From assembly GCA_964410125.1 (NCBI GenBank), contig CAYPGQ010000009.1, positions 13,192 through 77,191 of the forward strand: DNA of 64,000 bases, in the 5' to 3' direction. This document shows positions 2-21,486 of this stretch, one piece after another. The notes below the pieces were generated by a model that saw only the letters and a list, made by a program, of their open reading frames with translations, was not told the DNA's origin and ran no database searches. Origin of the DNA: an uncultured Eubacteriales bacterium. Lineage in GTDB: Bacteria; Acidobacteriota; Aminicenantia; Aminicenantales; Aminicenantaceae. Position numbers and translations under genes: made by a program. Position 1 is the first letter of the stretch; each line of letters starts with the position of its first letter.

Positions 2-637
2 AAGGTGTTGTATTCCGAAGGAAAGGGGACTGTCGGGTTGATCGAATACATTCCCGGCGAATACGCTTGGAGAGGGGTCGAAGCAGAAGGGTACATGGTT
101 ATCCACTGCCTTTGCATCTTTTATAAGCCGTACAGAGAAAAGGGCATTGCAAGCAAGATGATCGATGAGTGCATAAAAGATGCAAAAAAAGAAAAAAAGC
201 ATGGAGTTGCTGTCGTCACACGGAAGGGAGCTTGGATGGTCGGAAAGGACCTATTCGTGAAGAATGGATTTGAAGTTGTGGATAAGGCTGAACCTGATTT
301 TGAGCTTTTGGTGAAAAAATTCAAAAAAGAAACTCCTGCACCAAAATTCAAGGGAAATTGGGATAAAGTTCTGGAAAAATACAAAAAAGGCCTGACCATC
401 CTCTGGTCTGACCAATGTCCGTATATTGCAAAGTCGATCCATGAAATCAGAGAAACGATCAAGGAAAGATATGGGATTAAGGCCAATATTGTCGAGATAA
501 AAGATCACAAACAAGCCCAGAATGCTCCCTCCCCGTATGCGATCTTCAGCCTGATTTATGAGGGGGAACTCCTGGCCTTTCATCCCATCAGCAATAAAAG
601 GTTCATGAACATCATGGACAAAGTTTTGAGGAAATAA
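2..637 (+). CDS. GNAT-family N-acetyltransferase with C-terminal YoaP-like domain (5' end cut by window edge)
   Basis: The frame is open from the window start, and track ORF 5..637 begins at an internal GTG. There is a GNAT core with an acetyl-CoA-loop-like segment (YREKGIASKMI). The C-terminal tail (WSDQCPYIAKS...IYEGELLAFHPIS) is typical of YoaP-like domains. Confidence 0.7.
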   Translation, partial: KVLYSEGKGTVGLIEYIPGEYAWRGVEAEGYMVIHCLCIFYKPYREKGIASKMIDECIKDAKKEKKHGVAVVTRKGAWMVGKDLFVKNGFEVVDKAEPDFELLVKKFKKETPAPKFKGNWDKVLEKYKKGLTILWSDQCPYIAKSIHEIRETIKERYGIKANIVEIKDHKQAQNAPSPYAIFSLIYEGELLAFHPISNKRFMNIMDKVLRK

Positions 638-641
638 CATC

Positions 642-827
642 ATGCTTCCGAAAGTGATCACGCATAACACAATCAGTCTTTTGATCTTGCCCACTCTGGT
701 CGGACGAGAATCCTTGAAGTTGTTCGAAGATTTTAGCCCCAGAGACAAAGAGATAAGACTGAAACTTACAAGAAATGAAGCTTTCGATAACAACCACATT
801 TTGTTAGAATACAAAGTGTTGAAATAG
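642..827 (+). CDS. Possible small hypothetical protein (61 aa)
   Basis: This is only an ORF filling the GNAT/GyrI-like intergenic gap. It has no recognisable motif and no clear Shine-Dalgarno sequence. Confidence 0.15.
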   Translation: MLPKVITHNTISLLILPTLVGRESLKLFEDFSPRDKEIRLKLTRNEAFDNNHILLEYKVLK

Positions 828-843
828 GCAAAAAGGAGGGGCC

Positions 844-1323
844 ATGAGTGATTTAGACGTTCGGATCGTTAAGCTTGAACCGATGCGTGTGGCGAGTGTT
901 AGGGCAGTCAGCGAAAGTCCGGAGGTAGATGCCTGGGGAAAATTGCGAACATGGGCCGAGCCCAAAGGATTTCTCCAGGATGACGAAAATCATCCTATAT
1001 TTGGGTTCAACAATCCCAATCCCCAACCGGGCAGCAAGGAATATGGATACGAGCTCTGGATAAAGGTGGGTTCCGATGTGGGATCCGAGGGAAAGATCGA
1101 GATGAAGGACTATCCTGGCGGATTATTTGCTGTGACTACGTGCAAACTGACCGGAGATCCCAGCGGGTGGAATATCCTCGAGACTTGGAAGGCGCTTTGG
1201 GAATGGGTCAAAGCCAGCAAATACAAATGGCGTCAGGTTCATGAGTTGGAAAAGGTCCACGACCCGATGGCTGCAGAGATGGATATCATCTTAGACCTCT
1301 TTCTTCCCATCGAAGAAGAGTAG
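844..1323 (+). CDS. GyrI-like small-molecule-binding domain protein
   Basis: 159 aa. An AGGAGGGG Shine-Dalgarno sequence lies just upstream. The pattern VRIVKLEPMRVASVR...YELWIKV...GGLFAV matches the GyrI-like/AraC effector-binding fold family. Confidence 0.7.
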   Translation: MSDLDVRIVKLEPMRVASVRAVSESPEVDAWGKLRTWAEPKGFLQDDENHPIFGFNNPNPQPGSKEYGYELWIKVGSDVGSEGKIEMKDYPGGLFAVTTCKLTGDPSGWNILETWKALWEWVKASKYKWRQVHELEKVHDPMAAEMDIILDLFLPIEEE

Positions 1324-1330
1324 CCCCTGC

Positions 1331-2077
1331 TCAAAATTTTGCGGATAGGCCGGCGATAAACAAAACATCATTTTTCTTGATGGCCTCGCCGACCGGTTTG
1401 CTGTCATATTTATCCATCAGTGTCAGTTTGACCGACAATCCTTTGGTTATGGCTGAGGCCAAACTTATCTCGAATTGCAAAAAGATATGGTCCAATTTTG
1501 ATATGTTCGTATTGAGACTGAGCGATTGAGATATTTCCGCGGTCGGGCTGACTTGCCAAGTGAATTCATTCCCCAATGAAATACCGGTATAACTGTCTGT
1601 TTCTCCGGACTCGTGGTATTTTGTGAACACCTGGGATAGCCCGGAGCTGGCAGATAGAAGGGCATTTTCCAATGTGAGGATTTTATAGCCCAATCCCAAA
1701 CTGGGGAGGATCCTGTAACTGAAGTTTTTAAATCGGTCTCTGAGCCCCTGAATGCCATAATAGGAAAAAAATCTTTCTGAATGTTTCCATTGGATATAAG
1801 TTTCCAGCCCCATAGATTCGGCATTGGAGATATCCTTTTCTTTGTTAAGAAGAAAAAAAGCTTTATTCGTGCTGTCGATAGACTTGGACACTGGGCCTTT
1901 TGCAGAAAAAGTTAAAGATATATTTGTTGTGTCGGTATTCCCGCGAGCCAAAGCCAATCCAACTGCGGCATCTCCACCCCAATTATTCTCTTCATTTTCC
2001 TTGTCTTGGGCAAGTGCCCCTGTCACCAAGCATAGGCACAAAGCTGTAATAAGCCAATTGTATTTGAGAAGTTTCAT
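1331..2077 (-). CDS. DUF481-family outer-membrane beta-barrel protein (YdiY-like)
   Basis: Signal peptide (LITALCLCLVTGALAQ). It has alternating beta-strand sequence, the segment GNTDTTNISLTFSAK and a terminal aromatic residue (LSAKF), all typical of DUF481. Confidence 0.65.
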   Translation of the reverse strand: MKLLKYNWLITALCLCLVTGALAQDKENEENNWGGDAAVGLALARGNTDTTNISLTFSAKGPVSKSIDSTNKAFFLLNKEKDISNAESMGLETYIQWKHSERFFSYYGIQGLRDRFKNFSYRILPSLGLGYKILTLENALLSASSGLSQVFTKYHESGETDSYTGISLGNEFTWQVSPTAEISQSLSLNTNISKLDHIFLQFEISLASAITKGLSVKLTLMDKYDSKPVGEAIKKNDVLFIAGLSAKF

Positions 2078-2091
2078 AAGTTATCCTCCAC

Positions 2092-2313
2092 TTAATGAGT
2101 CCGTTTGTTTTCATTCCTTGATTTGCGCAACAGGGATGGATAGGATATTAAGGATTGGGGCCTGCGAGAACGATAGGCAGCCAACAGACTCAGAAGAAAG
2201 CTGATAAAAAGAAAACCAATGATCACAAGAATACGGGACATGCTGATCGTCCAGAGAAAAAAATGAAAGGTGACCATTTCCGTAGTCTGGAATGCGATAT
2301 TGAGGACAAGCAC
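2092..2313 (-). CDS. Possible small membrane protein (start uncertain)
   Basis: The ORF lies between two OMP genes on the same strand. It has one clear hydrophobic helix (ILVIIGFLFISFLLSLLAAY) followed by basic residues. There is no Shine-Dalgarno sequence and no known family. Confidence 0.25.
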   Translation of the reverse strand: MLVLNIAFQTTEMVTFHFFLWTISMSRILVIIGFLFISFLLSLLAAYRSRRPQSLISYPSLLRKSRNENKRTH

Positions 2314-2316
2314 TGA

Positions 2317-2931
2317 TTAATAAAAATAATTCAGCCCGATCAGGATACTGAAAGAGCTCAGGTTGACGCGGAATGTGGTTGAAGGTGAATTATCGAGGTA
2401 GATCGTTTCAGCATCAGCCGTCCCTCTGAGATAGAGGCCTTCGAAGAACAAGGATAACCTGTTGTTGAGCTTGATCGTGCTCCCGACTCCTCCATAAAAT
2501 CCCAAGCCGTTTTTTATTTCTTGTCTTCGGACGTTTGCTTCCTCCAAATCTCCCCGCTCGCTCAGACGAAAGGTGCTGAAAAACAGGCCTCCTCCGGCGA
2601 AAACATAGGGTGAGAAAGTTTCACTCACAGATATGTTGTAATGGACAGAGGCAACAAGGGGAGTCACGGTAAGTGTGCCATCCAGAAATTTGCCTTCTTC
2701 TTTATCGACGCTAAGCCGGTTGTACTTCCACTCGAGAGAAACAGATATGTTGGGATTGAGATAAATTACTCCGCCTATGCCGGATCCGTATCCTGTGTTT
2801 ATGTTTTTTTGGCTGGGGAAAAAACCTGCCGCGTTTATAAAAAAGCTGAGCCGGCGAAACTGGGCAAAACCGGTTGTGGCTAGAGCCATTAGCAATAATG
2901 GAATAACAATCAGTTTGAAAAATCTGGGCAT
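2317..2931 (-). CDS. Outer-membrane beta-barrel protein (OmpW/porin-like small barrel)
   Basis: Signal peptide ending TTGFAQ, amphipathic beta-strands, and the C-terminal GLNYFY aromatic signature. Confidence 0.6.
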   Translation of the reverse strand: MPRFFKLIVIPLLLMALATTGFAQFRRLSFFINAAGFFPSQKNINTGYGSGIGGVIYLNPNISVSLEWKYNRLSVDKEEGKFLDGTLTVTPLVASVHYNISVSETFSPYVFAGGGLFFSTFRLSERGDLEEANVRRQEIKNGLGFYGGVGSTIKLNNRLSLFFEGLYLRGTADAETIYLDNSPSTTFRVNLSSFSILIGLNYFY

Positions 2932-3011
2932 GCCAGCCTCCTAAAGATAAAAATCCGTATATATGCTAAGAAACGTGTCAATTGTTCCACTTTTTTAAAT
3001 TCATGATCATT

Positions 3012-4955
3012 TTACACGGATTCCAGGAGTTCTTCGAGCCGGAGGCGGTGGGATTCCCAGGATTTATACAACCCCTCGATCCGTTTCTTGAGCTCGGCAT
3101 AATCATTGTTCAACTGGGCAATGTCTGTCCTATCCCGATAAGTTTCAGGATTAGCCAATTTCGTCTCCGTTTCTCTGAGTTGGAATTCGGACATCTCAAT
3201 ATCCTTTTCGAGTCTTTTTATCATTTTCTGTAGGTAATTCCGTTCATGGCTTACTTCTTGACGAGCTTCAGCCTCCTGGCGCTTTTGCTCTCTGGTCTTC
3301 CGGCTTGTGGCACCGCGCTCCTGTGGTTCCTCCTCTTCGATTTTTTGTTCGGTCGCGTCCGGTTCCTGTTCCCGCTTCCAAAGATAATAGGAATAATTGC
3401 CGTAGTATTCGTCCAGACGTCCATTCTTGAGCTCGATGACCCGGCCCACCAGTTTATCCAGGAAGTAGCGATCATGGGAAATGAGAAGCAAAGTGCCATC
3501 GTAATTGCCCAGAGCATCCTCCAGTGCTTCCCGGGCGGTGATGTCTAGGTGGGTGGTGGGTTCGTCCATAATCAATAAATTGACAGGCGAAAGCAATATT
3601 TTTGCCAGTGATACGCGCGCCTTTTCCCCGCCTGACAGGACCTTGATCTTTTTGTCAATCTCGTCGTCACCGAACTGAAAGATCCCCAGTGCTTGACGGA
3701 TTTTGGTAATGAGCCCTGTGACAGCAGTGGAAGCCACTTCGTCGAAGATCGTGTTTTCCGGATGCAGGGCCTGGATTTGGTGCTGGGCGTAAAAGCCGAC
3801 CTGCACCTTTTTTCCCAGCCGCAAGGTCCCTTGCTGCGGTTCAATCTCTCCTGCGACAAGTCGAGTCAACGTGGTTTTTCCTGCTCCGTTGATCCCGACC
3901 AGAGCGATCTTATCCCCTCGCGAGATGTGAAGGTCGATGTTCTTCAACACCCAATCCTGTTGGTAGCGGAAACTCATGTTTTCGGTGAACAGTACATCTT
4001 TATAGCCGGGTGTTTCGACCTGGAGGCTGAAATTCAGGTTTCTGAGTGCCGGGGGAAGTTCGATCGCTTCCATCTTTTCCAGCATTTTGATCCGGCTTTG
4101 AACCTGGGAAGCCCTTCTTTTATCGCTCCGGTACTTGTTGATGAAGCGAGTAATACGCTCCTTCTCTACTGCCTGCTCATCGCGTCGTTTCTGCAAGAGC
4201 CGAAGTTTCTCCTGCTTCTGCTCCTCGAAGAAGTGATAATTCCCTCGGTAACGGGTGAGTTCTCCCCGGTCGAGCTCGTAGATCTCATGGGCCAGCCGGT
4301 CGATGAAAAACCGGTCATGGGAGACGATGACGATGCTGCCCTTGTAATTCAGGAGATAATGCTCCAGCCATTCCATCGAGGGAATATCCAGGTGGTTGGT
4401 GGGCTCATCCAGGAGGAGCAAGTCGGGATTTTGGAGAAGGAGCTGGGCAAGGTAAACTCGCATACACCATCCTCCGCTCAATTCGGCGAAGTCCGCATGG
4501 AATAGCTTCTCTTTGAAACCTAGGCCGGAAAGAATTTTTTTAGCTTCACCTTCAATGGTGTAGCCCCTCAGATCCTGATAATGCTGTTCCAGGGGACCCA
4601 GTCTTTTCAGCAAGCCTTTGTCCTCAGGGTCGGTTTCTAGGGCGGTGTGAAGGGCGTGGATCTTGTGCTCCAGCTCTCGGATCTCCGGAATTCCTGCCAG
4701 GGCGTTTTCCAGGACGCTCCCTTGGCCTACCACGATTTCTTCCTGGGGGAGGTAGCCGATGGTGTAGTTACGCGGTTTGGTAATGGTCCCTGAATGGGAG
4801 TCGATATCTCCGGTCAGGATGCGCAGAAGGGTGGTCTTGCCAGACCCGTTGGGCCCGATCAACGCGAAACGCTTCTCAGGTTGAAGATTCCAGCTTACAG
4901 AGGACAGGAGGTCCCGGTCCCCGATGGAGTAATGGAGGTTACGAACTTGAAGCAT
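3012..4955 (-). CDS. ABC-F family ATPase (Uup/YheS-like, no transmembrane domain)
   Basis: Two Walker A motifs (GPNGSGKTT, GINGAGKTT), two ABC signatures (LSGGWCMR, LSGGEKAR) and two Walker B motifs (LLLLDEPTNHLD, LLIMDEPTTHLD). There is an inter-domain linker and a charged coiled-coil C-terminus. Confidence 0.9.
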   Translation of the reverse strand: MLQVRNLHYSIGDRDLLSSVSWNLQPEKRFALIGPNGSGKTTLLRILTGDIDSHSGTITKPRNYTIGYLPQEEIVVGQGSVLENALAGIPEIRELEHKIHALHTALETDPEDKGLLKRLGPLEQHYQDLRGYTIEGEAKKILSGLGFKEKLFHADFAELSGGWCMRVYLAQLLLQNPDLLLLDEPTNHLDIPSMEWLEHYLLNYKGSIVIVSHDRFFIDRLAHEIYELDRGELTRYRGNYHFFEEQKQEKLRLLQKRRDEQAVEKERITRFINKYRSDKRRASQVQSRIKMLEKMEAIELPPALRNLNFSLQVETPGYKDVLFTENMSFRYQQDWVLKNIDLHISRGDKIALVGINGAGKTTLTRLVAGEIEPQQGTLRLGKKVQVGFYAQHQIQALHPENTIFDEVASTAVTGLITKIRQALGIFQFGDDEIDKKIKVLSGGEKARVSLAKILLSPVNLLIMDEPTTHLDITAREALEDALGNYDGTLLLISHDRYFLDKLVGRVIELKNGRLDEYYGNYSYYLWKREQEPDATEQKIEEEEPQERGATSRKTREQKRQEAEARQEVSHERNYLQKMIKRLEKDIEMSEFQLRETETKLANPETYRDRTDIAQLNNDYAELKKRIEGLYKSWESHRLRLEELLESV

Positions 4956-8097: not shown

Positions 8098-8128
8098 GGG
8101 GACGTCCCCAAGAGTCGTCCCCAAGAGT
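8098..8128 (-). terminator. GC palindrome GGGGACGTCCCC plus tandem 13-bp duplication (CGTCCCCAAGAGT x2) abutting the stop of CDS 8128..10323
   Basis: Read directly. On the minus strand the G4/C4 arms can form alternative hairpins followed by ATTTATT. This is the only terminator-like structure in the long minus-strand gene run. Confidence 0.4.
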
Positions 8129-10323
8129 TACCAGCGCCAGGAGTACTGGACTTTGACGAAAAACTGATTCAATTCCGAGAGAAATCTACCCTGGGTGTCC
8201 AGCCAGTTGCGGTTATATACAACAAAAATGTCTAGCAGACTGCGGTAGGTGAAACGCAGGCGGGTATTCAAGCCTAAGGATTTGGTGATGTTGTCATACT
8301 GAAGGAAACTGAGAATCTGGAAATTGGAGGTGAGGAAAAGATCAACTCGAGCTCTTACCATTTGGATATCCACATCTCCCGTGGGGAGTTTCCCCCAGTT
8401 CCTTTCTCCTTGGAAACCCAAGTTCAAGCGGTGTGAAGGCCTCCATGCGAGTTCAACCTGCAACTGGTCCATAGTTCCGTCATATAGCGTGCCGAACCAC
8501 CAACTGATTTTTGTCGTCACTTTTCGTTTGCTGGCTGATTGAAATTCCAGGCGGTAGCGCCACCAATTGTATTCGCCTGCCTTGACAAAGACATCCTCAG
8601 CAATTTCGAATTCTTCGGGAATACGTTCGTAATAAGGGACGATATTGAATTCGATCCGGTCGCCACTTTCCAAACGCCAGTTGAGCGGAGCGGTGAAAAT
8701 TCTCCACTGGTAAATCTTTCCATCTAAATCCCAAACAGCCTGTGTGAAAAATTCGTGCATCATTTGCCGTACCCAGGACCAGTTCGGTCTGGGCTTAAAG
8801 TTAAGATTGAAGTTGGCTTTGTAGATTCCTCTCCAGGGTACAAATCCCATTGAAGGGTCATAATCTTCGCCGATGCGTTTAAAATTAAAAGAGATGTCCC
8901 AGAGATCATTCGGATAATCGATGGAGAATCCGAAAGCTGTGCGGTCATTTCCCAAATCCTCCCGGTTGTTGAACAATCCCCAGACCCCGACCAGGAAGTT
9001 TTTATCACCTTGAAATTTGGATGTCTTGTACACAAAATCGCCGCCAACCTGCCAGCTGTTTTTGCGTCCAAGGGGATCTCCAGCGGTCACGATAAAACCA
9101 AATTTTGATTCAGCCCAAATATTTTGAAAACCACGTGCAGCAAAAAGATTGGTTCTTGGAGAAAGACCATCAACTGGACGCATCAATGAATTGAGAACAC
9201 CGAAGCTAAACCTGCCGGTGCTGCCAGTCGCTTTCACGGCCGCATCTATCGGAACCGTTTCTCCCTCTTCCAGCCCGATGCGCCGGCTGAAAAAAGGCAC
9301 CAAGTCTCTGCTGTGGTGGAAGCTCATTCCTAGTCCGAATTCGTAAATATCTGAACCTTCGAGGAAAAAAGTTCTTTTTTCAGGAAAAAAAAGAGGAAAC
9401 CGTGTCAGGTTGATCCGTCGAGTGTCGACTTCGGTTTCGGCAAAATCCGTGTTGATGCTCAGGAGCCCGGTGACATTTCCCCCGAAATTTTTCATGACAT
9501 CCAGACCCGGCTCGAAATTGTAAGAGACCGCTTCTTCGGGAGAATTCTGTATACGGTTCCCCAAAACATACGGCCGGACGGTCAATCCCTTTCCCTGTTG
9601 GAATGCTGGGAGTGAGGTGAGTTGGCCAGCGGTGCTTACGTTTGTGACTTTAAAGTTGCGATTGGGAGCCGCCCAGCGGTCGGTCTCCTGCAACCGTTGG
9701 ATCCGGCGTTCCACGTTAAATCCCCATTGTGTCAATCCTGTCGCGAAACGGATGGTTTTGATCGGTATGAAAATTTCTGCGCTCCAGCCTTGTTCAAACC
9801 GCCTTGCTGCTGCCTCCCAGATTCCGTCCCACTGTGCATTCTCTCCTTCTCCCTCTCTCTCGATTAAGCCGTCATACCTGGCTCCGTTCGGATTGATGGC
9901 GAAGATGTATCCGGTTCTTCCGTTTGAAAAAGTGTCCAGCACGATCTTCATATGGTCTTCACCACGCAATTGGGCATCCCGTTGCATGGTGTAGCTCACG
10001 ATCTTATCCGGATCGCTGTCGAAGCACATGATCCCGAAATAAATCGATTGGGAATCCACAACGACTCGCACTTCGGTCTTCATGCTAGGAGGAACACCCT
10101 CATCCGGTTCTACCATGGTCAAAGGTCCGATAGGTGTTGCTTTTTGCCACAGAGCCTCTGTTAAGTGGCCATCAATCTTAATTTTTTCCTGTTGGGAGAT
10201 CTGATACACCTGTGCGTCTGCTGATGGCGTTCTTGCCTTCGATTGAATCGATCCAGGCAGGCATAAAAGGAGGATGATGAAAGAGGAGGTGAAAAGGAAT
10301 CTGATGGCAGAGGCTTTATCCAT
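8128..10323 (-). CDS. CBM9-like + DUF5916 domain outer-membrane protein
   Basis: Signal peptide. The N-terminal block (IDGHLTEALWQKA...VVVDSQSIYFGIMCFD...HMKIVLDTFSNGRTGYIFAINPNG) is characteristic of the carbohydrate-binding family-9-like domain that precedes DUF5916. A long beta-rich C-terminus ends in YSWRW. Confidence 0.7.
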   Translation of the reverse strand: MDKASAIRFLFTSSFIILLLCLPGSIQSKARTPSADAQVYQISQQEKIKIDGHLTEALWQKATPIGPLTMVEPDEGVPPSMKTEVRVVVDSQSIYFGIMCFDSDPDKIVSYTMQRDAQLRGEDHMKIVLDTFSNGRTGYIFAINPNGARYDGLIEREGEGENAQWDGIWEAAARRFEQGWSAEIFIPIKTIRFATGLTQWGFNVERRIQRLQETDRWAAPNRNFKVTNVSTAGQLTSLPAFQQGKGLTVRPYVLGNRIQNSPEEAVSYNFEPGLDVMKNFGGNVTGLLSINTDFAETEVDTRRINLTRFPLFFPEKRTFFLEGSDIYEFGLGMSFHHSRDLVPFFSRRIGLEEGETVPIDAAVKATGSTGRFSFGVLNSLMRPVDGLSPRTNLFAARGFQNIWAESKFGFIVTAGDPLGRKNSWQVGGDFVYKTSKFQGDKNFLVGVWGLFNNREDLGNDRTAFGFSIDYPNDLWDISFNFKRIGEDYDPSMGFVPWRGIYKANFNLNFKPRPNWSWVRQMMHEFFTQAVWDLDGKIYQWRIFTAPLNWRLESGDRIEFNIVPYYERIPEEFEIAEDVFVKAGEYNWWRYRLEFQSASKRKVTTKISWWFGTLYDGTMDQLQVELAWRPSHRLNLGFQGERNWGKLPTGDVDIQMVRARVDLFLTSNFQILSFLQYDNITKSLGLNTRLRFTYRSLLDIFVVYNRNWLDTQGRFLSELNQFFVKVQYSWRW

Positions 10324-14387: not shown

Positions 14388-14541
14388 GAAATGACACTCA
14401 ATTTCGTTTAAAATATAATTTACTAAATTTCTGAGGTTTTTTGATAAAATAGGCAGCCTTCATCAAGGCAAAAAACAAACAATACTTTTATTTAAATCGA
14501 AAGCATTAATAATAGTTTTTTTTATAACGGAGCAGGGAATA

Positions 14542-15222
14542 ATGGAAAAAAAGATAAAACCTTTCATTCAAGTGTATTGTCCTGAATGCCAGGAGATGAT
14601 AAGTCCAGGAGAATGGACGGCCTGTCCGTATTTCGAGGGTGCAAAGCTGGATGTCAATGACACCGAAGATGCGATGAAACAAATTTTTCGCTGTCATGTC
14701 CAGTGCGATTGCAAGATTGAATACTCCTATTACGAGGGAGACAAATTAGTCTCCAAAGTCGAAGACGCGATCGAGGATCCCGAGAGTTTGCGGCGAATCT
14801 TGTCCTTGGTAACGAAAAAAAAGGATAAAGAAAAAGAAAGGAAATCGAAAAAAATCCTTCTAGTAGATGATGATAGAGATTTCTTGGAAATGCACACGGC
14901 TGTGCTGGAGCATAGGGGATATGAGGTGATTACAGCCCAGAGCTCCAATGAATGCATGGCAAAGTTGGATGAGACAAAGCCAGACATCGTTATTCTCGAC
15001 GTCATGATGGAACAGTTCGATTCCGGCTTCAAAGCCAGCGAGAAGATCAAACAGAAACACAAAAACCTTCCAGTCATGCTTTTAACATCGATCGGAGCAC
15101 AAACAAACTTGGATTTTTCATCAAACGATGATGTTCTGAAAGTTAGCGGGGCGGATGCCCTTCTGGATAAACCAGTGAGCCCCAAAGTCTTGATCGATGA
15201 GATCGAGCGGCTGACAAGCTAG
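14542..15222 (+). CDS. Response-regulator receiver protein with N-terminal Cys-rich (zinc-ribbon-like) extension and no output domain
   Basis: The N-terminus has CPEC-x12-C and C-x3-C-x-C. A Lys/Glu-rich linker follows. The REC domain reads KKILLVDDDRDFLE...DIVILDVMM...VMLLTS...DALLDKP. Confidence 0.85.
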   Translation: MEKKIKPFIQVYCPECQEMISPGEWTACPYFEGAKLDVNDTEDAMKQIFRCHVQCDCKIEYSYYEGDKLVSKVEDAIEDPESLRRILSLVTKKKDKEKERKSKKILLVDDDRDFLEMHTAVLEHRGYEVITAQSSNECMAKLDETKPDIVILDVMMEQFDSGFKASEKIKQKHKNLPVMLLTSIGAQTNLDFSSNDDVLKVSGADALLDKPVSPKVLIDEIERLTS

Positions 15223-15246: not shown

Positions 15247-17337
15247 ATGGAATTTTTAAAAATTTCGAGGCAGAAGTGCCGGTTGTGCGGCCGGTGTGTG
15301 AGGGACTGCCCCACCAATGCCTTGATGATCGAGCAAGGGAAGGTGGTTCGGATCGAGAATCGGTGCATTCTGTGCGGATCCTGTTACAAGTACTGTCCGC
15401 ATGGGGCTGTCCAAATACAAACGGGCGTGAATGAAGTCTTGGACGGCCTGGACGCGGGGGAAAAAATCATCGCGTGCCTCGATCCCACATTCCCGGCCGT
15501 TCTGGATGTTGGAACACCTGGCCAGTTGGTGACGGCTCTGAAAAAATTGGGATTTCAGGAAGTTTGGGAATCTGCTCTTGGGGGAGATCTGATCAGCCGC
15601 GAGTATCGAAAATGGCTTTGGGGAAACTCCAAGAATTCTTATATCTCTTCATTCTGTCCTTCGGTCGTACTCTACGTCGAAAAATTTGCACCGCAGTTGG
15701 TCGATCAGCTCGCGCCTGTGGTTTCGCCGATGGTGGCAACCGGAAAAGCCATTAAGAAGCTCCTGGGAGAGGAGACCAAAGTGGTATTTATCGGTTCCTG
15801 TATCTCCCGGATTTACGAGAGCCGGATCCCCCATCTAGAGGGGATCGTTGATTGTGTTCTGACCTACCACGACATAAAAGATATTCTTGATGATAAGGGC
15901 ATAGATCGTGAGGTACAGGAAGAATCACAATTTGATGGACCGAAACCGGGTCTGGGCAGAGTGCTCAGTGTCTCTGGTGGAATGTCCAAATGCATTGGGT
16001 TTGAACAGGACCTGGTGAATTTGAATAATGTGATCACGGCGGGTCCAAAGAGTGCTATACGGGCCATCCAGCAGCTGCAGGATGGGGCCATCCGACCCAA
16101 GTTTCTCGATGTGCTTTTCTGTCAGGGATGCATCGATGGGCCTATCGTGGACAAGAACATATCGGGGCCGAGCCGAAAGCAGATCGTTGTGGATTTTTTT
16201 GAGTCCCAAAGCGAGGAGATTTGGGAAGGGGATAAAGACGTTACTTCGAAACTGTTGCCTATGGACCTTGGACGCAGCTTTTCTGTTCAGGATATATCTC
16301 TGCCAGAGCCGAAGGAAAAAGAGATTCAGGCCGTTTTGGCCGAATTGGGCAAAACCTATCCCAACCGGAATCTGGACTGTGGAGCATGTGGTTTCAACAC
16401 CTGCCGCGAGAAGGCTATCGCCGTCGTGCAGGGTCTGGCCGAGAAAGAAATGTGCATGCACTATCTTCTCACCCAATCGAGGCGCTTGTATTCCCGTCTG
16501 GAAAAGTCTCATCAGGAACTCAAGATTTCCCATGAAGAATTGGAACAGGCTCAGAGACAGCTCATTCAGTCCGAAAAATTGGCCTCTCTCGGTCAGTTGG
16601 CAGCCGGCGTGGCCCATGAATTGAACAATCCTCTGGGAACGATCACCCTTTTCGGCAGTATGCTCAAAAAAGATTTGGCTCACAATGAGAAGTGGGATAA
16701 AGACATCAGCCTTATCATCCTGGAAGCGGAACGGGCCGCCAAAATTGTCAAGGACCTGTTGAGTTTTTCACGGCAAACCAAGCTGAAACCAGGGCTTGTG
16801 AATATTGACAGCATTATCGAAGAGGCGGTCTCTCTTCTCGCCAAGCGATCCCTATTTCGTAACATTCAGGTGAAACAGGAACTGGATGTCTCTGCCCCGA
16901 CCACGTTTGCCGATCCTGATCTGCTCAAGCAGGTCTTTTTCAACATCATTCTGAACGGGGCTCAAGCCATGGAAGGAAGTGGAGAACTCACGATACGAAG
17001 TCATGCTATCAACAGGGATAAAAGGATCCAAATCCAGATCGAAGATACGGGAAAAGGAATTGCAGAGGACCATCTTTCCCGTCTTTTCGATCCTTTTTTC
17101 ACGACAAAGGAAAAGGGAACTGGGCTTGGGCTAGCCTTGGTTTACGGGATTGTGTCCAAACACAAGGGGACGATCGATGTGAAAAGCGAGCTGGGAAAAG
17201 GAACAACGTTTTATATAGACCTGCCTGTTTTGGATCAGTCGGAATGGAAAAAGGGAGAATTGAAGCTCGTGGATATGAAAAAAGTGCAAAGAGGAGGGGA
17301 AGATGCCTCAAAAGGGAAAGATCTTATTGGTGGATGA
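15247..17337 (+). CDS. Sensor histidine kinase with 2x[4Fe-4S] ferredoxin + [FeFe]-hydrogenase large-subunit-like + Fe-S (CxxCx4C..C) domains
   Basis: Two CxxCxxCxxxCP motifs (res 11-21, 40-50). The hydrogenase-like core has SSFCPS, GSCISR and FCQGCIDG at the positions of the H-cluster motifs. It also has LDCGACGFNTC...C, a coiled coil, the H-box AAGVAHELNNPL, and N/G boxes (NIILNGAQAM, DTGKGI, GTGLGLALV). Confidence 0.85.
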   Translation: MEFLKISRQKCRLCGRCVRDCPTNALMIEQGKVVRIENRCILCGSCYKYCPHGAVQIQTGVNEVLDGLDAGEKIIACLDPTFPAVLDVGTPGQLVTALKKLGFQEVWESALGGDLISREYRKWLWGNSKNSYISSFCPSVVLYVEKFAPQLVDQLAPVVSPMVATGKAIKKLLGEETKVVFIGSCISRIYESRIPHLEGIVDCVLTYHDIKDILDDKGIDREVQEESQFDGPKPGLGRVLSVSGGMSKCIGFEQDLVNLNNVITAGPKSAIRAIQQLQDGAIRPKFLDVLFCQGCIDGPIVDKNISGPSRKQIVVDFFESQSEEIWEGDKDVTSKLLPMDLGRSFSVQDISLPEPKEKEIQAVLAELGKTYPNRNLDCGACGFNTCREKAIAVVQGLAEKEMCMHYLLTQSRRLYSRLEKSHQELKISHEELEQAQRQLIQSEKLASLGQLAAGVAHELNNPLGTITLFGSMLKKDLAHNEKWDKDISLIILEAERAAKIVKDLLSFSRQTKLKPGLVNIDSIIEEAVSLLAKRSLFRNIQVKQELDVSAPTTFADPDLLKQVFFNIILNGAQAMEGSGELTIRSHAINRDKRIQIQIEDTGKGIAEDHLSRLFDPFFTTKEKGTGLGLALVYGIVSKHKGTIDVKSELGKGTTFYIDLPVLDQSEWKKGELKLVDMKKVQRGGEDASKGKDLIGG

Positions 17338-17704
17338 TGACCTGGATTTTCTCGAAATGCATAAGGCTGTGCTGGTTAATCATGGTTATGAAGTGAAAAC
17401 AGCTCCCAGTGCTCAAGAGGGATTGGAAAAAGTGAGAACAGAAATGCCAGACCTGATCGTCCTGGATTTGATGATGGAGAAACACGACGCTGGATTTTCC
17501 TTTTCCAGACAAATCAAAAGCGATCCCCTATTCAAAAAAATCCCTATCCTGATGGTGACTGCCGTGGCCGATGTTACAGGCTTCAAGTTTTCATTGGAAA
17601 AGGATGGATACTGGATGAAAACGGATGAGTTTCTCGATAAACCTGTGGAACCATCGGTTCTCATCGAAAAAGTCGAAAAATTACTCGGAAAAAAAGAGGA
17701 GTAA
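17303..17704 (+). CDS. CheY-like single-domain response regulator
   Basis: 133 aa with a GGAGG Shine-Dalgarno sequence. It overlaps the kinase gene by 35 nt. REC motifs are KILLVDDDLDFLE, DLIVLDLMM, ILMVTA and FLDKP. Confidence 0.9.
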   Translation: MPQKGKILLVDDDLDFLEMHKAVLVNHGYEVKTAPSAQEGLEKVRTEMPDLIVLDLMMEKHDAGFSFSRQIKSDPLFKKIPILMVTAVADVTGFKFSLEKDGYWMKTDEFLDKPVEPSVLIEKVEKLLGKKEE

Positions 17705-17705
17705 A

Positions 17706-19193
17706 TTGAGCACCAAAGCGAATATCCTGGTTGTGGATGATGAAATGGGAATCCGGGAGGGCTGCAAGCGAGCCCTTTCCGAAGAAGGTTATGCCGTGGA
17801 TGATGCGGAGGATGGCCAGGCCGGACTCCAGAAAGTCACACAGAATGACTACGACTTAGTCCTGGTCGATCTGATGATGCCGGGTATAGGGGGCATGGAC
17901 CTCATCAAGAAAATTCACCACATGGACCCTGAGATCATCACAGTGGTGATCACAGGGAATGCGACGATCGAAACAGCAGTCGAGGCCACAAAACTTGGCG
18001 CGTACGATTATCTTCCCAAACCCTTTTCCCCCGAGGCGCTGGCCGCGGTCGTCAAGCGCGGGCTGGAAAAGAGAATTCTCAGCCTCGAAGCGAAAAAACT
18101 CTACGCTGAGAGGACACAAAAGATGCTGGAACTGGTGAATGAAAGGAGCCGGCTGCGGACCATTGTCGGCTGCATGGCCGATGGTGTTTTGGTGGCCAAT
18201 CTGGAAGGCCGGCTTGTGCTCTGGAATGCATCCAGTGTCAAGATGCTTAAATCTAAGGGTTTTGATATAGCCGGAGAGCCCCTCGAATACTATATTTCTA
18301 ATGAACCTCTTATCGCCGGCATCAAAGAAGTTCTTAATTCTGAGGATAAAGATTTTTCGATGATAAGCCGGGAAGTTCCCGTCCAGGACGAAAAAGTGAT
18401 CTTGATGGCTAATATAGCGCCAGTCAGGGACGAAGGCGAAAAGATCCTTGGAGCGGTGACGGTTCTCAGGGATATCACAACACTCAAAGAGATCAATAAG
18501 ATCAAGTCGCAGTTTGTCTCGATGGTCGCTCATGAGCTCAGGGCTCCGCTGGCTGCGATCAAGGGTTGGCTGGAAGTAATCCTTTCTGGCGAAGCCGGCG
18601 GGGATGCGGAACAGAATAAGCAATGGCTCCAGCGGGCCATGGATCGTTCAGACTCTTTGCTGGCGCTGGTCAATGACCTTCTCGTGATCAACCGGATGGA
18701 GGCTGGAAAGATTGCCCAAAAAATGGAGCCTGTCCTGATAAACGACGTTATAAAAAAAATAGTCGATTTTTTAAAACCTGAGGCCGAAAAACGAAAAGTG
18801 ACCTTAACCATTGAATTACCTGAAGACCTTCCTTCTATCCAAGCTGATCTCAGAGATATGGAAAAGCTTTTCACCAACCTGGTCAGCAATGCGATCAAAT
18901 TCAACAGGAAGAATGGGTCTGTCACCATAAAAGGGGAGGTCGAGGGGAGTTCTATCCATCTTAGTGTAAAGGACACCGGCATCGGGATTTTAGCCGATCA
19001 CCTATCCCATATCTTCGATGATTTTTACCGTGCCGATGATGAAAAAATAAAAAAGATATCCGGCACCGGGCTCGGTTTGACCATCGCCAAAAAGATTGTC
19101 AACTCCTATTTTGGGCACATCGAGGTGGCAAGCGAACCAGATAAAGGAAGCATCTTTTCTATATTTCTTCCCCTTGAGCATCGCAAAGATTAA
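17706..19193 (+). CDS. Hybrid REC-PAS-histidine kinase
   Basis: REC (NILVVDDEMGIREG...DLVLVDLMMPG...VITGNA...YLPKPF), a PAS-like segment, the H-box SMVAHELRAPL and an HATPase domain (NLVSNAIKF, DTGIGI, GTGLGLTIAK). I place the start at TTG 17706, 1 nt after the upstream stop and behind GAGGAG. The track ORF starts at 17625. Confidence 0.85.
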   Translation: MSTKANILVVDDEMGIREGCKRALSEEGYAVDDAEDGQAGLQKVTQNDYDLVLVDLMMPGIGGMDLIKKIHHMDPEIITVVITGNATIETAVEATKLGAYDYLPKPFSPEALAAVVKRGLEKRILSLEAKKLYAERTQKMLELVNERSRLRTIVGCMADGVLVANLEGRLVLWNASSVKMLKSKGFDIAGEPLEYYISNEPLIAGIKEVLNSEDKDFSMISREVPVQDEKVILMANIAPVRDEGEKILGAVTVLRDITTLKEINKIKSQFVSMVAHELRAPLAAIKGWLEVILSGEAGGDAEQNKQWLQRAMDRSDSLLALVNDLLVINRMEAGKIAQKMEPVLINDVIKKIVDFLKPEAEKRKVTLTIELPEDLPSIQADLRDMEKLFTNLVSNAIKFNRKNGSVTIKGEVEGSSIHLSVKDTGIGILADHLSHIFDDFYRADDEKIKKISGTGLGLTIAKKIVNSYFGHIEVASEPDKGSIFSIFLPLEHRKD

Positions 19194-19203
19194 GAGGCAA
19201 AAA

Positions 19204-21486
19204 ATGAGTTCAAGCGAAAAATACAAGTTGAATGAGATTGTCCATAAAGAAAGCTTAGCCCCGGCTATCACACTTTTTAAAATTTATACACCTGTTGTAG
19301 CCAATGCCGTGAAGGCGGGACAGTTCGCCGTCGTCAGAACGGATGACTATGCGGAGAGAGTCCCCTTGACTGTTGCGGATAAAGACCTAAAGGGAGAGAC
19401 CATCACGCTGATCGTGCAGGTTGTGGGGACGGCCACACGGAAAATGGACTCCTTGGAAGTGGGGGATTTTTTTCTCGATGTTGTCGGTCCTCTGGGACAG
19501 GCGACAGAGGTCGGGAGTGCGGGAACCGTGGTGTGTATCGGAGGGGGCGTCGGTGTCGCCCCTGTTTATCCGATTACCAGAGCATTTAAAGAGGCCGGGA
19601 ATCGCATCATCTCCATCATCGGTGCGCGGTCCAAGGAAATGATCATCCTGGAAGACGAGATGCGGGCCACAAGCGACGAGCTGTATATCGCCACAGACGA
19701 TGGTTCCGAGGGGCATCATGGTTTTGTGACAGATATCCTCAAAAAGCTTCTAGCAGATGGAACAGAGATTAATGAAGTTGTAGCCATAGGCCCGGGAATA
19801 ATGATGAAAGCCGTGGCCGATATCACGAAGGAGCCGGGCATCAAAACCATCGTGAGCCTCAACTCTCTCATGGTGGATGGAACAGGCATGTGCGGGGGGT
19901 GCCGGATCACAGTAGGAGGAGAAACAAAATTTGTCTGTGTGGATGGGCCGGAATTTGACGGCCATCTGGTCGATTTTGATGAGCTCATGCAGCGCTCGGA
20001 GATGTATGTCCGGGAAGAACATCGTGCCATGTGGGATTATGAATGCCGGCTGCAGCAAGCCGACGATAACCTAAAAAGAGCAAACAACCGGGAGCCCATG
20101 CCCAAACAGGACCCGAAGATGCGGATCCAGAATTTTGATGAGGTGGCGTTGGGATACAACCGGGAACAAGCCATGCGAGAAGCTTCACGCTGCCTGCAGT
20201 GCAAAAAGCCTTTTTGTGTGGAAGGATGCCCTGTGGATATCGACATTCCGGCTTTTATCATCAAAATCAAAGAAGGGGATTTCATGGGGGCCATCCACAA
20301 GATCAAGGAAAAAAACAGCCTGCCTGCTGTATGCGGCAGAGTATGCCCACAGGAGGAACAGTGCGAAGCGAAGTGCATCCTCGGGAAGAAAAAAGATCCC
20401 ATCGCCATAGGCCGATTGGAACGGTTTGTGGCAGATTATGAGTTTGACCAGGGCGAAGCGCGAGTCCCGAAGCTTCCTGAACCGACAGGGAAAAAGGTGG
20501 CGGTGATCGGTGCCGGCCCAGCAGGACTCACCGTTGCCGGGGAATTGTGCAAGATCGGTCACGCTGTCACGGTTTTCGAAGCTCTCCATGCCCCGGGAGG
20601 AGTTCTTGTTTACGGCATTCCCGAGTTTCGTCTACCCAAATGGATTGTCCAGAGGGAGAGCGATTACATCGGGAAGTTGGGAGCGGATATCAAAGTCAGT
20701 TATGTCGTCGGCAAAGCCAAAACCGTGAACGAGCTACTTGAAGACGGATACGATGCGGTGTTTATCGGGACAGGGGCAGGATTACCCTATTTTCTGAATA
20801 TTCCGGGGGAGAACCTTAATGGAGTATATTCGGCAAACGAATTTCTGACCCGGGTTAATCTGATGAAGGCCTATCTTTTTCCCGAATACAACACGCCCAT
20901 CCGTCTCGGCCAAAAAATCGCGGTCATCGGCGGAGGAAACGTGACAATGGATTCAGCCCGAACTTCCCTACGCCTTGGTGCCGAGAAAGTCTATCTGGTC
21001 TACCGGAGGTCCCGCGAGGAGATGCCTGCTCGGGAGGAAGAGATCGAGAATGCCTTTGAAGAAGGCATCGAACCCCGTCTGCTGACCAATCCGATCCGGA
21101 TCCTGGGCAATGAAAGAGGATGGGTCACAGGATTGGAATGTGTCCAGACGAAATTGACAGAGCCTGATGATTCTGGCCGGAGGCGTCCCGTTGCCATAGA
21201 GGGTTCTGAGCATGTTATCGATGTGGATATGGTGATTGTGGCTATCGGTCAGGGGCCGAACCCGTTGTTGACTTCGACGACACCGGACTTAGAACTGACA
21301 AAATGGGGAAACATCGTGGCCGATGAAGAGACAGGGCGGACATCGAAAAAGGGTGTTTTTGCCGGAGGGGATATTGTCACAGGTGCGGCCACCGTGATTC
21401 TTGCGATGGGCGCGGGCAAAATTGCGGCCCGATCCATCGACCAGTACTTAAACGATGGAAAATGGGAGATCGCTCGTGAAGGCTAG
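19204..21486 (+). CDS. nfnAB: Fused NfnA-NfnB: NADH-dependent reduced-ferredoxin:NADP+ oxidoreductase-type (sulfide dehydrogenase/GltD-like) single polypeptide
   Basis: The N-terminal PyrK/NfnA-like FAD/NAD module carries the [2Fe-2S] motif DGTGMCGGCR...FVCVDGPEF. The C-terminal GltD/NfnB-like module has 2x[4Fe-4S] (RCLQCKKPFCVEGCP; CGRVCPQEEQCEAKC), GAGPAGL and a second dinucleotide fold (VIGGGNVTMD). The ATG at 19204 lies behind AAGAGG, and the upstream part of the track ORF overlaps the kinase gene. Confidence 0.85.
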   Translation: MSSSEKYKLNEIVHKESLAPAITLFKIYTPVVANAVKAGQFAVVRTDDYAERVPLTVADKDLKGETITLIVQVVGTATRKMDSLEVGDFFLDVVGPLGQATEVGSAGTVVCIGGGVGVAPVYPITRAFKEAGNRIISIIGARSKEMIILEDEMRATSDELYIATDDGSEGHHGFVTDILKKLLADGTEINEVVAIGPGIMMKAVADITKEPGIKTIVSLNSLMVDGTGMCGGCRITVGGETKFVCVDGPEFDGHLVDFDELMQRSEMYVREEHRAMWDYECRLQQADDNLKRANNREPMPKQDPKMRIQNFDEVALGYNREQAMREASRCLQCKKPFCVEGCPVDIDIPAFIIKIKEGDFMGAIHKIKEKNSLPAVCGRVCPQEEQCEAKCILGKKKDPIAIGRLERFVADYEFDQGEARVPKLPEPTGKKVAVIGAGPAGLTVAGELCKIGHAVTVFEALHAPGGVLVYGIPEFRLPKWIVQRESDYIGKLGADIKVSYVVGKAKTVNELLEDGYDAVFIGTGAGLPYFLNIPGENLNGVYSANEFLTRVNLMKAYLFPEYNTPIRLGQKIAVIGGGNVTMDSARTSLRLGAEKVYLVYRRSREEMPAREEEIENAFEEGIEPRLLTNPIRILGNERGWVTGLECVQTKLTEPDDSGRRRPVAIEGSEHVIDVDMVIVAIGQGPNPLLTSTTPDLELTKWGNIVADEETGRTSKKGVFAGGDIVTGAATVILAMGAGKIAARSIDQYLNDGKWEIAREG

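Follow-up and report, generated by a model that had tools for sequence, protein, structure and literature searches.

A group C-type [FeFe]-hydrogenase-like sensor kinase beside an Nfn-type oxidoreductase gene in Aminicenantes: a candidate sensor of cellular reducing power

The window, by which we mean the whole stretch of 64,000 nucleotides analysed here, comes from contig CAYPGQ010000009.1 of an uncultured Aminicenantes bacterium (genome of 5.08 Mb, 90% complete). An open reading frame (ORF) on its plus strand, 15247..17337, encodes a sensor histidine kinase of 696 aa whose input half resembles an [FeFe]-hydrogenase, with a hydrogenase-type domain (H-domain) set between iron-sulfur (Fe-S) modules. 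The gene lies in a block of five that also encodes two receiver proteins, a hybrid kinase, and a fused NAD(P)H/ferredoxin oxidoreductase of the NfnA-NfnB type. Sensing of cellular reducing power appears more likely for this protein than sensing of hydrogen.

The ORF was annotated from Pfam matches, an alignment to hydrogenase I of Clostridium pasteurianum (CpI) and an AlphaFold model, and its assignment to H-domain, Fe-S and kinase modules is far above chance. All of its modules are encoded on the plus strand. Two [4Fe-4S] ferredoxin motifs (C11/C14/C17/C21 and C40/C43/C46/C50; Pfam Fer4 and Fer4_6) are found at 15259..15411, residues 5–55. The H-domain follows at 15478..16143 (residues 78–299) and matches positions 7–245 of the 245 in PF02906 (Fe_hyd_lg_C) with an E-value of 3.5e-42. 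An Fe-S module of the form Cx2Cx4Cx16C (PF04060, FeS; C378, C381, C386 and C403) is at 16372..16458, residues 376–404. There is no PAS domain by Pfam, and HisKA comes straight after this module: a signalling helix (residues 404–476) runs into the dimerisation and histidine phosphotransfer domain (DHp/HisKA, residues 448–510; together 16456..16776), which carries the phospho-acceptor H457 at 16615–16617. The HATPase_c domain (16912..17229, residues 556–661; E 2.3e-26) has intact N, G1 and G2 boxes (N566, N570, D600-G602-G604, G624-G626-G628). The initial annotation, made from the sequence, had proposed the two upstream ferredoxin clusters and the downstream module, and both the Pfam matches and the cysteine pattern bear this out.

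The AlphaFold2 model, built from 58 input sequences, has a mean predicted local distance difference test score (pLDDT) of 84.4, with values above 90 across most of the sensor half. In Foldseek the sensor half aligned with CpI, CbA5H, DdH and the HydA subunit of HydABC over approximately 420–455 columns (E of about 1e-20 to 1e-22), and the kinase half aligned with ZraS at a template modelling (TM) score of 0.82. Sequence comparison gave the same picture – the solved chains closest to the sensor half are HydA of Thermotoga maritima HydABC, HydA1 of T. kivui, CpI and DdH, and the one closest to the kinase half is ZraS (E 5.5e-42). Secondary structure assignment on the model (DSSP) gave one unbroken helix at 404–476, from C403 to beyond H457, with the next helix at 481–509.

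Among 24 orthologs with 62–89% identity to the window protein, all 16 cluster cysteines, F136, H457 and the N, G1 and G2 boxes are invariant. The cysteines, H457 and the boxes are still invariant in a wider set at 36–89% identity. This conservation suggests a working kinase under purifying selection. The H-domain scores 145 bits against PF02906, below the 160–200 bits typical of group C sensors, and a lower score of this kind would fit a decayed, functionless relic of an H-domain carried on an ordinary kinase. That explanation is highly improbable. Across genera there is no variation in the 16 cluster ligands or in many of the pocket residues, the sensor half is modelled with confidence, and the module is conserved across two phyla; we rejected the relic as effectively refuted by the conservation data.

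Residues of the H-domain were mapped by phmmer alignments to solved CpI chains. At L1, SSFCPS aligns with TSCCPS(W) of CpI, so that F136 corresponds to C299 and C137 to C300. At L2, GSCISR aligns with MPCTSK, placing G183 at M353, S184 at P354, C185 at C355 and R188 at K358. At L3, FCQ-GCIDG aligns with ACHGGCVNG, placing L290 at M497, C292 at C499 and C295 at C503; the L3 stretch is weak by itself in phmmer, and the Pfam profile covers the H-domain to its end. The four cysteine ligands of the H-cluster are C137 (15655–15657), C185 (15799–15801), C292 (16120–16122) and C295 (16129–16131), exactly the residues picked out in the initial annotation, which was also correct in reading Phe in place of the proton-transfer cysteine C299.

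For statistics on each position, residues 1–420 were searched against 1.8 billion representative proteins. This gave 684 representatives at E < 1e-30, of which the best 150 were compared. The four ligand cysteines are invariant in the family and approximately 99% conserved over these 150. Other positions around the diiron site have changed in the window protein. A230 is kept in 116 of the 150, P354 in 142 and K358 in 131, and the window protein has D79 (15481–15483), S184 and R188 (15808–15810) at these positions. Position 299 is mostly A, S, P, T or C among the 150; it is Phe here (F136, 15652–15654). Gly at position 353 (G183) is found in 143 of the 150, and L3 normally has the form FCxGCIxGP. 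The pocket residues of functional enzymes, A230, C299, P354 and K358, and the proton pathway are thus not kept in the window protein. Across these representatives there is co-variation between Asp at 230 and a residue at 299 that is bulky or unusual (about 6:0 in phylogenetically independent pairs, median p 0.03). Asp at 230 and loss of K358 likewise go together (raw Fisher p 3.7e-8), with about 3:0 independent pairs, too few for significance.

Many of these features are common to a known class. The putative sensory [FeFe]-hydrogenases of group C (M2f, represented by TmHydS) and group D (M2e, represented by TamHydS) have a C-terminal Cx2Cx4Cx16C motif and two N-terminal clusters, and have lost C299 with the entire proton pathway, as well as the GGGQP tail (Land et al. 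2020, PMC8163306). In TmHydS, M353 is replaced by Gly and M497 by Ser (PMC8163306). The window protein has the group C traits of two N-terminal [4Fe-4S] clusters, no C299, a C-terminal Cx2Cx4Cx16C module and Gly at 353. The traits that the initial annotation had thought remarkable are not peculiar to this protein, and a unique motif pattern was rejected as an interpretation: the lost C299, the short L3 and the additional C-terminal cluster are all described as marks of the class (PMC8163306).

Sensory H-domains fused to a kinase are likewise a known and common kind of protein. HydDB has an entry for histidine kinase-linked (putative) [FeFe] group C1 (PMC5037454), and a 2024 study described group C proteins with a histidine kinase domain, BfuT, within the sub-type V clusters of bifurcating hydrogenases (PMC11406978). 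The C1 and C3 labels fit the architecture poorly, since sensors with the kinase domain are typed C3 while C1 members have none or only HATPase_c (PMC11406978); because of this inconsistency a firm C1 label was not adopted for the window protein. In species-representative genomes, a scan for kinase-fused members gave at least 544 loci, spread over many phyla. Of the 684 representatives, the best 150 align almost without exception along the full cassette of two ferredoxin motifs, H-domain and FeS module, and the Fe-S cysteines are present in 142–146 of them. A kinase core is found in 47 of these 150; the other outputs attached to the cassette are PAS (in proteins of approximately 570–590 aa), GGDEF and sigma-54 activators. 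In a tree built without TmHydS, TamHydS and CpI, the window protein nests among representatives that carry the same cassette with PAS, histidine kinase, GGDEF or sigma-54 outputs. Fusions to GGDEF or to sigma-54 activator/HTH outputs occur in other lineages (representatives P0122, P0133, P0138, P0173 and P0175), so the cassette behaves as a portable input module.

TmHydS itself, compared here through its published description, is alike in its N-terminal clusters, its four ligand cysteines, the lost proton pathway, M353Gly and the C-terminal module. It ends in a PAS domain, whereas the window protein has a directly fused HisKA-HATPase, and T. maritima has HydEFG and the partner HydABC, neither of which is found in the window genome. 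A230, P354 and K358 are retained in most representatives of group C; the window protein has Asp, Ser and Arg there, in addition to Phe at 299. TamHydS and a group D-like paralog in the window genome share the cassette without C299; this type has no fused output domain, and Thr or Ser rather than Gly at M353. The paralog has only 24% identity to the sensor half of the window protein. The regulatory [NiFe]-hydrogenase HoxBC with its kinase HoxJ (HydDB group 2b) follows the same logic, a hydrogenase-derived sensor controlling a histidine kinase. It has an unrelated metal site and fold and divides sensor and kinase between two proteins, and its sensing of H2 is proven. We know of no kinase-fused [FeFe] member that has been shown to sense anything, or that has been tried as a kinase.

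Sequences with Asp at 230 and Phe at 299 (D-F sequences) form a single clade with 99.6% support in the Shimodaira–Hasegawa-like approximate likelihood ratio test (SH-aLRT), in a tree from which the four trait columns had been left out. The clade contains the window protein, three Aminicenantes orthologs, the representatives P0108 and P0121, and loci from further metagenome-assembled genomes (MAGs): a 'delta proteobacterium' MAG, two Syntrophorhabdaceae MAGs and one unclassified MAG. Asp at 230 and Phe at 299 are fixed in it, while position 358 varies between Arg, Gln and His. Among the widespread kinase-fused sensors, the window protein falls in a side branch that is distinct and monophyletic. 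To judge from the literature searched, a subclade with an altered pocket, linkage to Nfn and no maturases in Aminicenantes is new; the literature search gave no match for an Nfn-linked H-domain kinase or for the absence of maturases in Aminicenantes, though either may still be published.

The genes that follow the sensor kinase are conserved with it. A stand-alone receiver of 133 aa (REC2, 17303..17704, plus strand; Pfam E 5.1e-19) overlaps the sensor gene by 35 nt. A hybrid kinase of approximately 495 aa with REC-PAS-HisKA-HATPase order by Pfam (17706..19193, plus strand) begins 1 nt past the REC2 stop codon, and a fused NfnA-NfnB-type oxidoreductase of 760 aa (19204..21486, plus strand) begins 10 nt past the hybrid kinase. 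Residues 294–754 of the last match T. maritima NfnB (4ylf_B) with 619 bits and residues 9–275 match NfnA/NfnI-beta with 249–320 bits; the whole protein scores 1099.8 bits against NF009414, for which the cut-off is 1103. Upstream of the sensor is another receiver gene (REC1, 14542..15222, plus strand), with its receiver domain at residues 105–221 (Pfam Response_reg, E 1.5e-19) behind a Cys-rich N-terminus of approximately 100 aa. The same five genes – Cys-rich receiver, sensor kinase, receiver, REC-PAS-histidine kinase and fused NfnA-NfnB (approximately 755 aa) – are found in orthologs at 62–72% identity. REC1 is kept directly upstream of the sensor in the Aminicenantes loci L011, L012 and L014 and is absent from the Desulfobacterota-like D-F members, which keep the last four genes.

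REC2 is at the same position in all eight D-F members with a readable downstream flank. Seven of these have enough flank to show the whole run of sensor, receiver, hybrid kinase and fused Nfn (above 1100 bits), and all seven have it, while their loci contain neither HydA nor HydG; the eighth, L066, shows the receiver gene only. In two of the members, L063 and L075, the fused gene downstream of the sensor is accompanied by an NfnA-like and an NfnB-like gene, not fused to each other, upstream of it. In the window block the junctions are tight and no convincing internal terminators were found from the sensor gene to nfn. A sigma-70-like promoter candidate lies upstream of the five genes (14391..14419, plus strand; ATGACA-17-TATAAT, 11 of 12 consensus positions). 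Promoter-like sites are no commoner in the region than in its shuffles, which makes this candidate weak evidence. From the junctions and this site, co-transcription of the block including nfn is plausible.

Kinase-fused sensors with the A.PK pocket, which keep A230, P354 and K358, have different neighbours. In other phyla many of them lie directly after a HydA-like ORF (37 of the 80 loci in a motif scan), usually one with the motifs TSC[CS]PGW, MPCxxK and ExMxCPGGC, and 27 of the 80 loci had HydG a few kb downstream. The receiver and the REC-HK hybrid are found downstream of the sensor in these loci too, and because of this shared relay the three-protein relay appears ancestral, with its client changed from a hydrogenase and maturases to Nfn. 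One of the closest described systems is that of the group C sensors beside HydABC/Bfu (BfuT, PMC11406978; C1/C3 in HydDB, PMC5037454), which have the same domain order as the window protein. Their loci L080 and L095 also have the receiver and hybrid kinase downstream, and identity in the sensor half is 36–48%. The BfuT-type sensors are beside HydA, often with hydG, and have the A.PK pocket, whereas the window clade is beside fused NfnAB and has a D-F-x-R/Q/H pocket, and in Aminicenantes the maturases are found nowhere in the genome.

None of HydE, HydG and HydF reaches its NCBIfam cut-off in the window genome, which has two H-domain genes, neither of them catalytic. The survey was extended to the order, 61 genomes made up of the window genome and 60 relatives, with a HydG threshold of 1e-5. 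PF02906 genes are present in 52 of the 61; approximately 11–13 are of the kinase type of about 700 aa and most are of a type of about 460 aa, which likewise occurs without HydEFG in most genomes of the order. HydG was above the cut-off in one genome (G033). HydE and HydF were searched for in nine relatives, five of them closed, and found in G033 only; in the closed genomes (G003, G039, G051, G037 and G057) all three maturases are absent. In G033, contig C12 (60660–66567) encodes a catalytic-type HydA of 593 aa (319 bits) with hydG, hydE and hydF directly behind it, the only such cluster in the 61 genomes. This genome has an estimated contamination of 6%, and the cluster may have been gained by lateral transfer or be on a mis-binned contig. 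Because it was found, the search can be said to pick up the maturases of this lineage where they accompany a real hydrogenase, and the sensors persist without them. Outside the order, 50 genomes that have typical kinase-fused sensors were searched at a strict threshold of E <= 1e-60, at which a very divergent HydG may be missed; 34 of them have HydG, often at the sensor locus itself. Pocket residues do not predict, as a general rule, whether a genome has HydG – 16 of the 50 genomes with A.PK sensors are HydG-negative and sensors with DFPR are found in two that are HydG-positive – and the two pocket types are cleanly told apart by local gene context only.

Because HydEFG are absent from the genome, HydG from all but one of the 60 relatives, and HydE and HydF from all but that one of the nine searched for them, we lean towards an Fe-S or redox sensor over a hydrogen sensor. 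The initial annotation had described a non-catalytic sensor on an H-domain, with either a true H-cluster or a cubane only, and this was sound; it had added that a hydrogen sensor would be less probable if maturases were missing and the protein grouped with Nar1. The maturases are missing, but no such grouping appeared: in the search of 1.8 billion proteins, and with no direct comparison to Nar1, the nearest relatives are all bacterial group C sensors. Nar1/NARFL (CIAO3) and unmatured apo-HydA are useful as functional analogies only, as H-domains that keep the cubane ligands and lack the diiron subsite in cells without HydEFG. Nar1 is a eukaryotic Fe-S assembly factor that lacks both a kinase and the Cx2Cx4Cx16C module.

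The reading we favour, with a probability of about 0.5, is that the protein is a sensor kinase with cubanes only, responding to the redox poise of ferredoxin and NAD(P)H and descended from a lineage of hydrogen sensors. It would be a soluble histidine kinase whose input is the full group C-type cassette of ferredoxin domain, H-domain and C-terminal cluster. The H-site would hold a [4Fe-4S] cubane alone, as in unmatured HydA or Nar1, giving four cubanes per protein. Electrons would enter at the N-terminal ferredoxin domain from the pool of reduced ferredoxin, and the redox state or integrity of the cluster chain would be passed through the C-terminal cluster to the kinase by the helix that C403 caps and that runs to H457. 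Phosphoryl groups would then flow, probably in this order, to REC2, to the hybrid kinase and to REC1, and the output would act on the putatively co-transcribed Nfn transhydrogenase and so on the balance of ferredoxin, NADH and NADPH. A more specific form of this proposal is offered tentatively, at slightly under even odds: that the diiron subsite was lost and its pocket filled by Asp79, Arg188 and Phe136, that a hydrogen sensor in this way became a four-cubane ferredoxin/NAD(P)H sensor governing Nfn, and that the change is shared by Aminicenantes and Syntrophorhabdaceae-type bacteria.

A number of observations weigh against this reading, and several of them point towards a true hydrogen sensor, in which a diiron or related subcluster would be acquired by a route independent of HydEFG and H2 would switch the kinase, perhaps coordinating [NiFe] hydrogenases with Nfn. 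The P231, S/T232 and S323-P324 scaffold is retained along with the four ligand cysteines. The plugged pocket, a D79–R188 pair with F136, is a hypothesis, and an Arg at 358 could in principle still hydrogen-bond a cyanide (CN) ligand. Characterised relatives in groups C and D bind an H-cluster although they lack C299 (PMC8163306). Most archaea with activatable [FeFe]-hydrogenases have no HydEFG, and an alternative route has been proposed (Greening and colleagues, PMC11216029). Among the bacteria, eight loci have HydA directly upstream of an intact-pocket sensor in a genome negative for HydG at E <= 1e-60 (L028, L037, L043, L046, L050, L061, L064 and L081, with ORFs at approximately 8100–10000). 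Seven have the canonical HydA motifs TSCCPGW, MPCTVK and EVMACPGGCING (EVM[AST]CPGGCING); L081 has TSCSPGW and MPCTAK. These genomes are mostly Ignavibacteria and Melioribacteraceae, and either they are incomplete MAGs or HydG-independent maturation exists in bacteria too. The rule that no HydG means no H-cluster is weakened by these loci and by the archaeal hydrogenases (PMC11216029).

Two D-F members from outside Aminicenantes (L063 and L075) come from the HydG-positive genomes mentioned above. The window genome has three genes for the large subunit of [NiFe] hydrogenases (contigs C87, C102 and C153), so H2 is physiologically relevant to the cell, and in one relative HoxH, HypA and HypB are encoded beside the module. 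Control of Nfn by the sensor is suggested by conserved synteny. The four signalling proteins have no DNA-binding domain recognisable by Pfam and no output domain was identified in them. A redox relay from cluster to helix is unproven in any member, because the C-terminal cluster of TamHydS did not respond in its redox state to H2 (PMC13104023).

A hydrogen sensor is nevertheless unlikely in our estimate. The changes A230D, C299F and K358R/Q/H are concentrated in exactly the D-F clade, and the variation between Arg, Gln and His within it makes it less likely that a contact with a CN ligand is conserved. The same clade has lost hydrogenase and maturase neighbours alike, and the sole catalytic HydA of the order comes with a canonical hydGEF.

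A second alternative to a sensor of redox poise is a sensor of O2, other oxidants, nitric oxide (NO) or Fe-S status, in which one or more of the four cubanes would be degraded or nitrosylated as in FNR or NreB, and in which loss or conversion of a cluster, not its reversible reduction, would switch the kinase. The absent maturases and the altered pocket fit this explanation equally, the organism is of a strict-anaerobe type with many oxygen-labile Fe-S enzymes, and in the model the C-terminal cluster appears to sit directly on the signalling helix. We think it improbable, and less probable than a hydrogen sensor: an entry domain with two ferredoxin clusters and a conserved linkage to Nfn are better suited to sensing of the electron pool, and there is no oxidative-stress gene in the locus of the window or of the orthologs.

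Groups C and D of putative sensory [FeFe]-hydrogenases are common in anaerobes, and the D-F clade and the hydrogenase-linked sensors form a testable contrast – the same cassette and phosphorelay, with three pocket residues different, no maturases, and Nfn in place of HydABC. A comparison of D-F and A.PK-type sensors would tell whether signalling needs the diiron site. If the favoured reading is true, the D-F clade is a natural control without the 2Fe subsite for what the H-domain, the C-terminal cluster and the REC/REC-HK relay sense in group C. Annotations of 'hydrogenase' in Aminicenantes and similar MAGs may wrongly imply production of H2. Metabolic reconstructions call for the same caution, as PF02906 is found in 51 of the 60 relatives and a plausible catalytic [FeFe]-hydrogenase in one only.

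Some smaller features of the locus concern the proteins of the relay. The first 100 or so residues of REC1 (14542–14850; CPEC...C, C-x-C-x...) had no match among Pfam and NCBIfam models. This Cys-rich module, a candidate for the missing output domain, is found in the Aminicenantes orthologs and not in the Desulfobacterota-like D-F members. The longest ORF of the hybrid kinase begins at an ATG at 17625, within REC2. Its likely start is the TTG at 17706, behind AAAGAGGAG, a Shine-Dalgarno motif; this motif and the length of the homologs (491–502 aa) argue for the TTG as the real start.

The second H-domain gene of the window genome, on the minus strand of contig C39 (locus L002; 1048–2418, in an operon at 2–3225), encodes the 456-aa group D/M2e-like paralog. 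Its motifs are SNACPT at L1, TPCPVK at L2 and SCLQGCVGG at L3, and its Cx2Cx4Cx16C module also matches a model for the N-terminus of RnfB. It is flanked by genes for two DRTGG-like small proteins, a 156-aa HATPase_c (RsbW-like) protein and a PHP protein. In the Aminicenantes locus L012 (885–2945 and 14250–17206), the sensor/Nfn module has a group D-like H-domain operon on one side and, on the other, a gene for the [NiFe] hydrogenase HoxH together with hypA and hypB.

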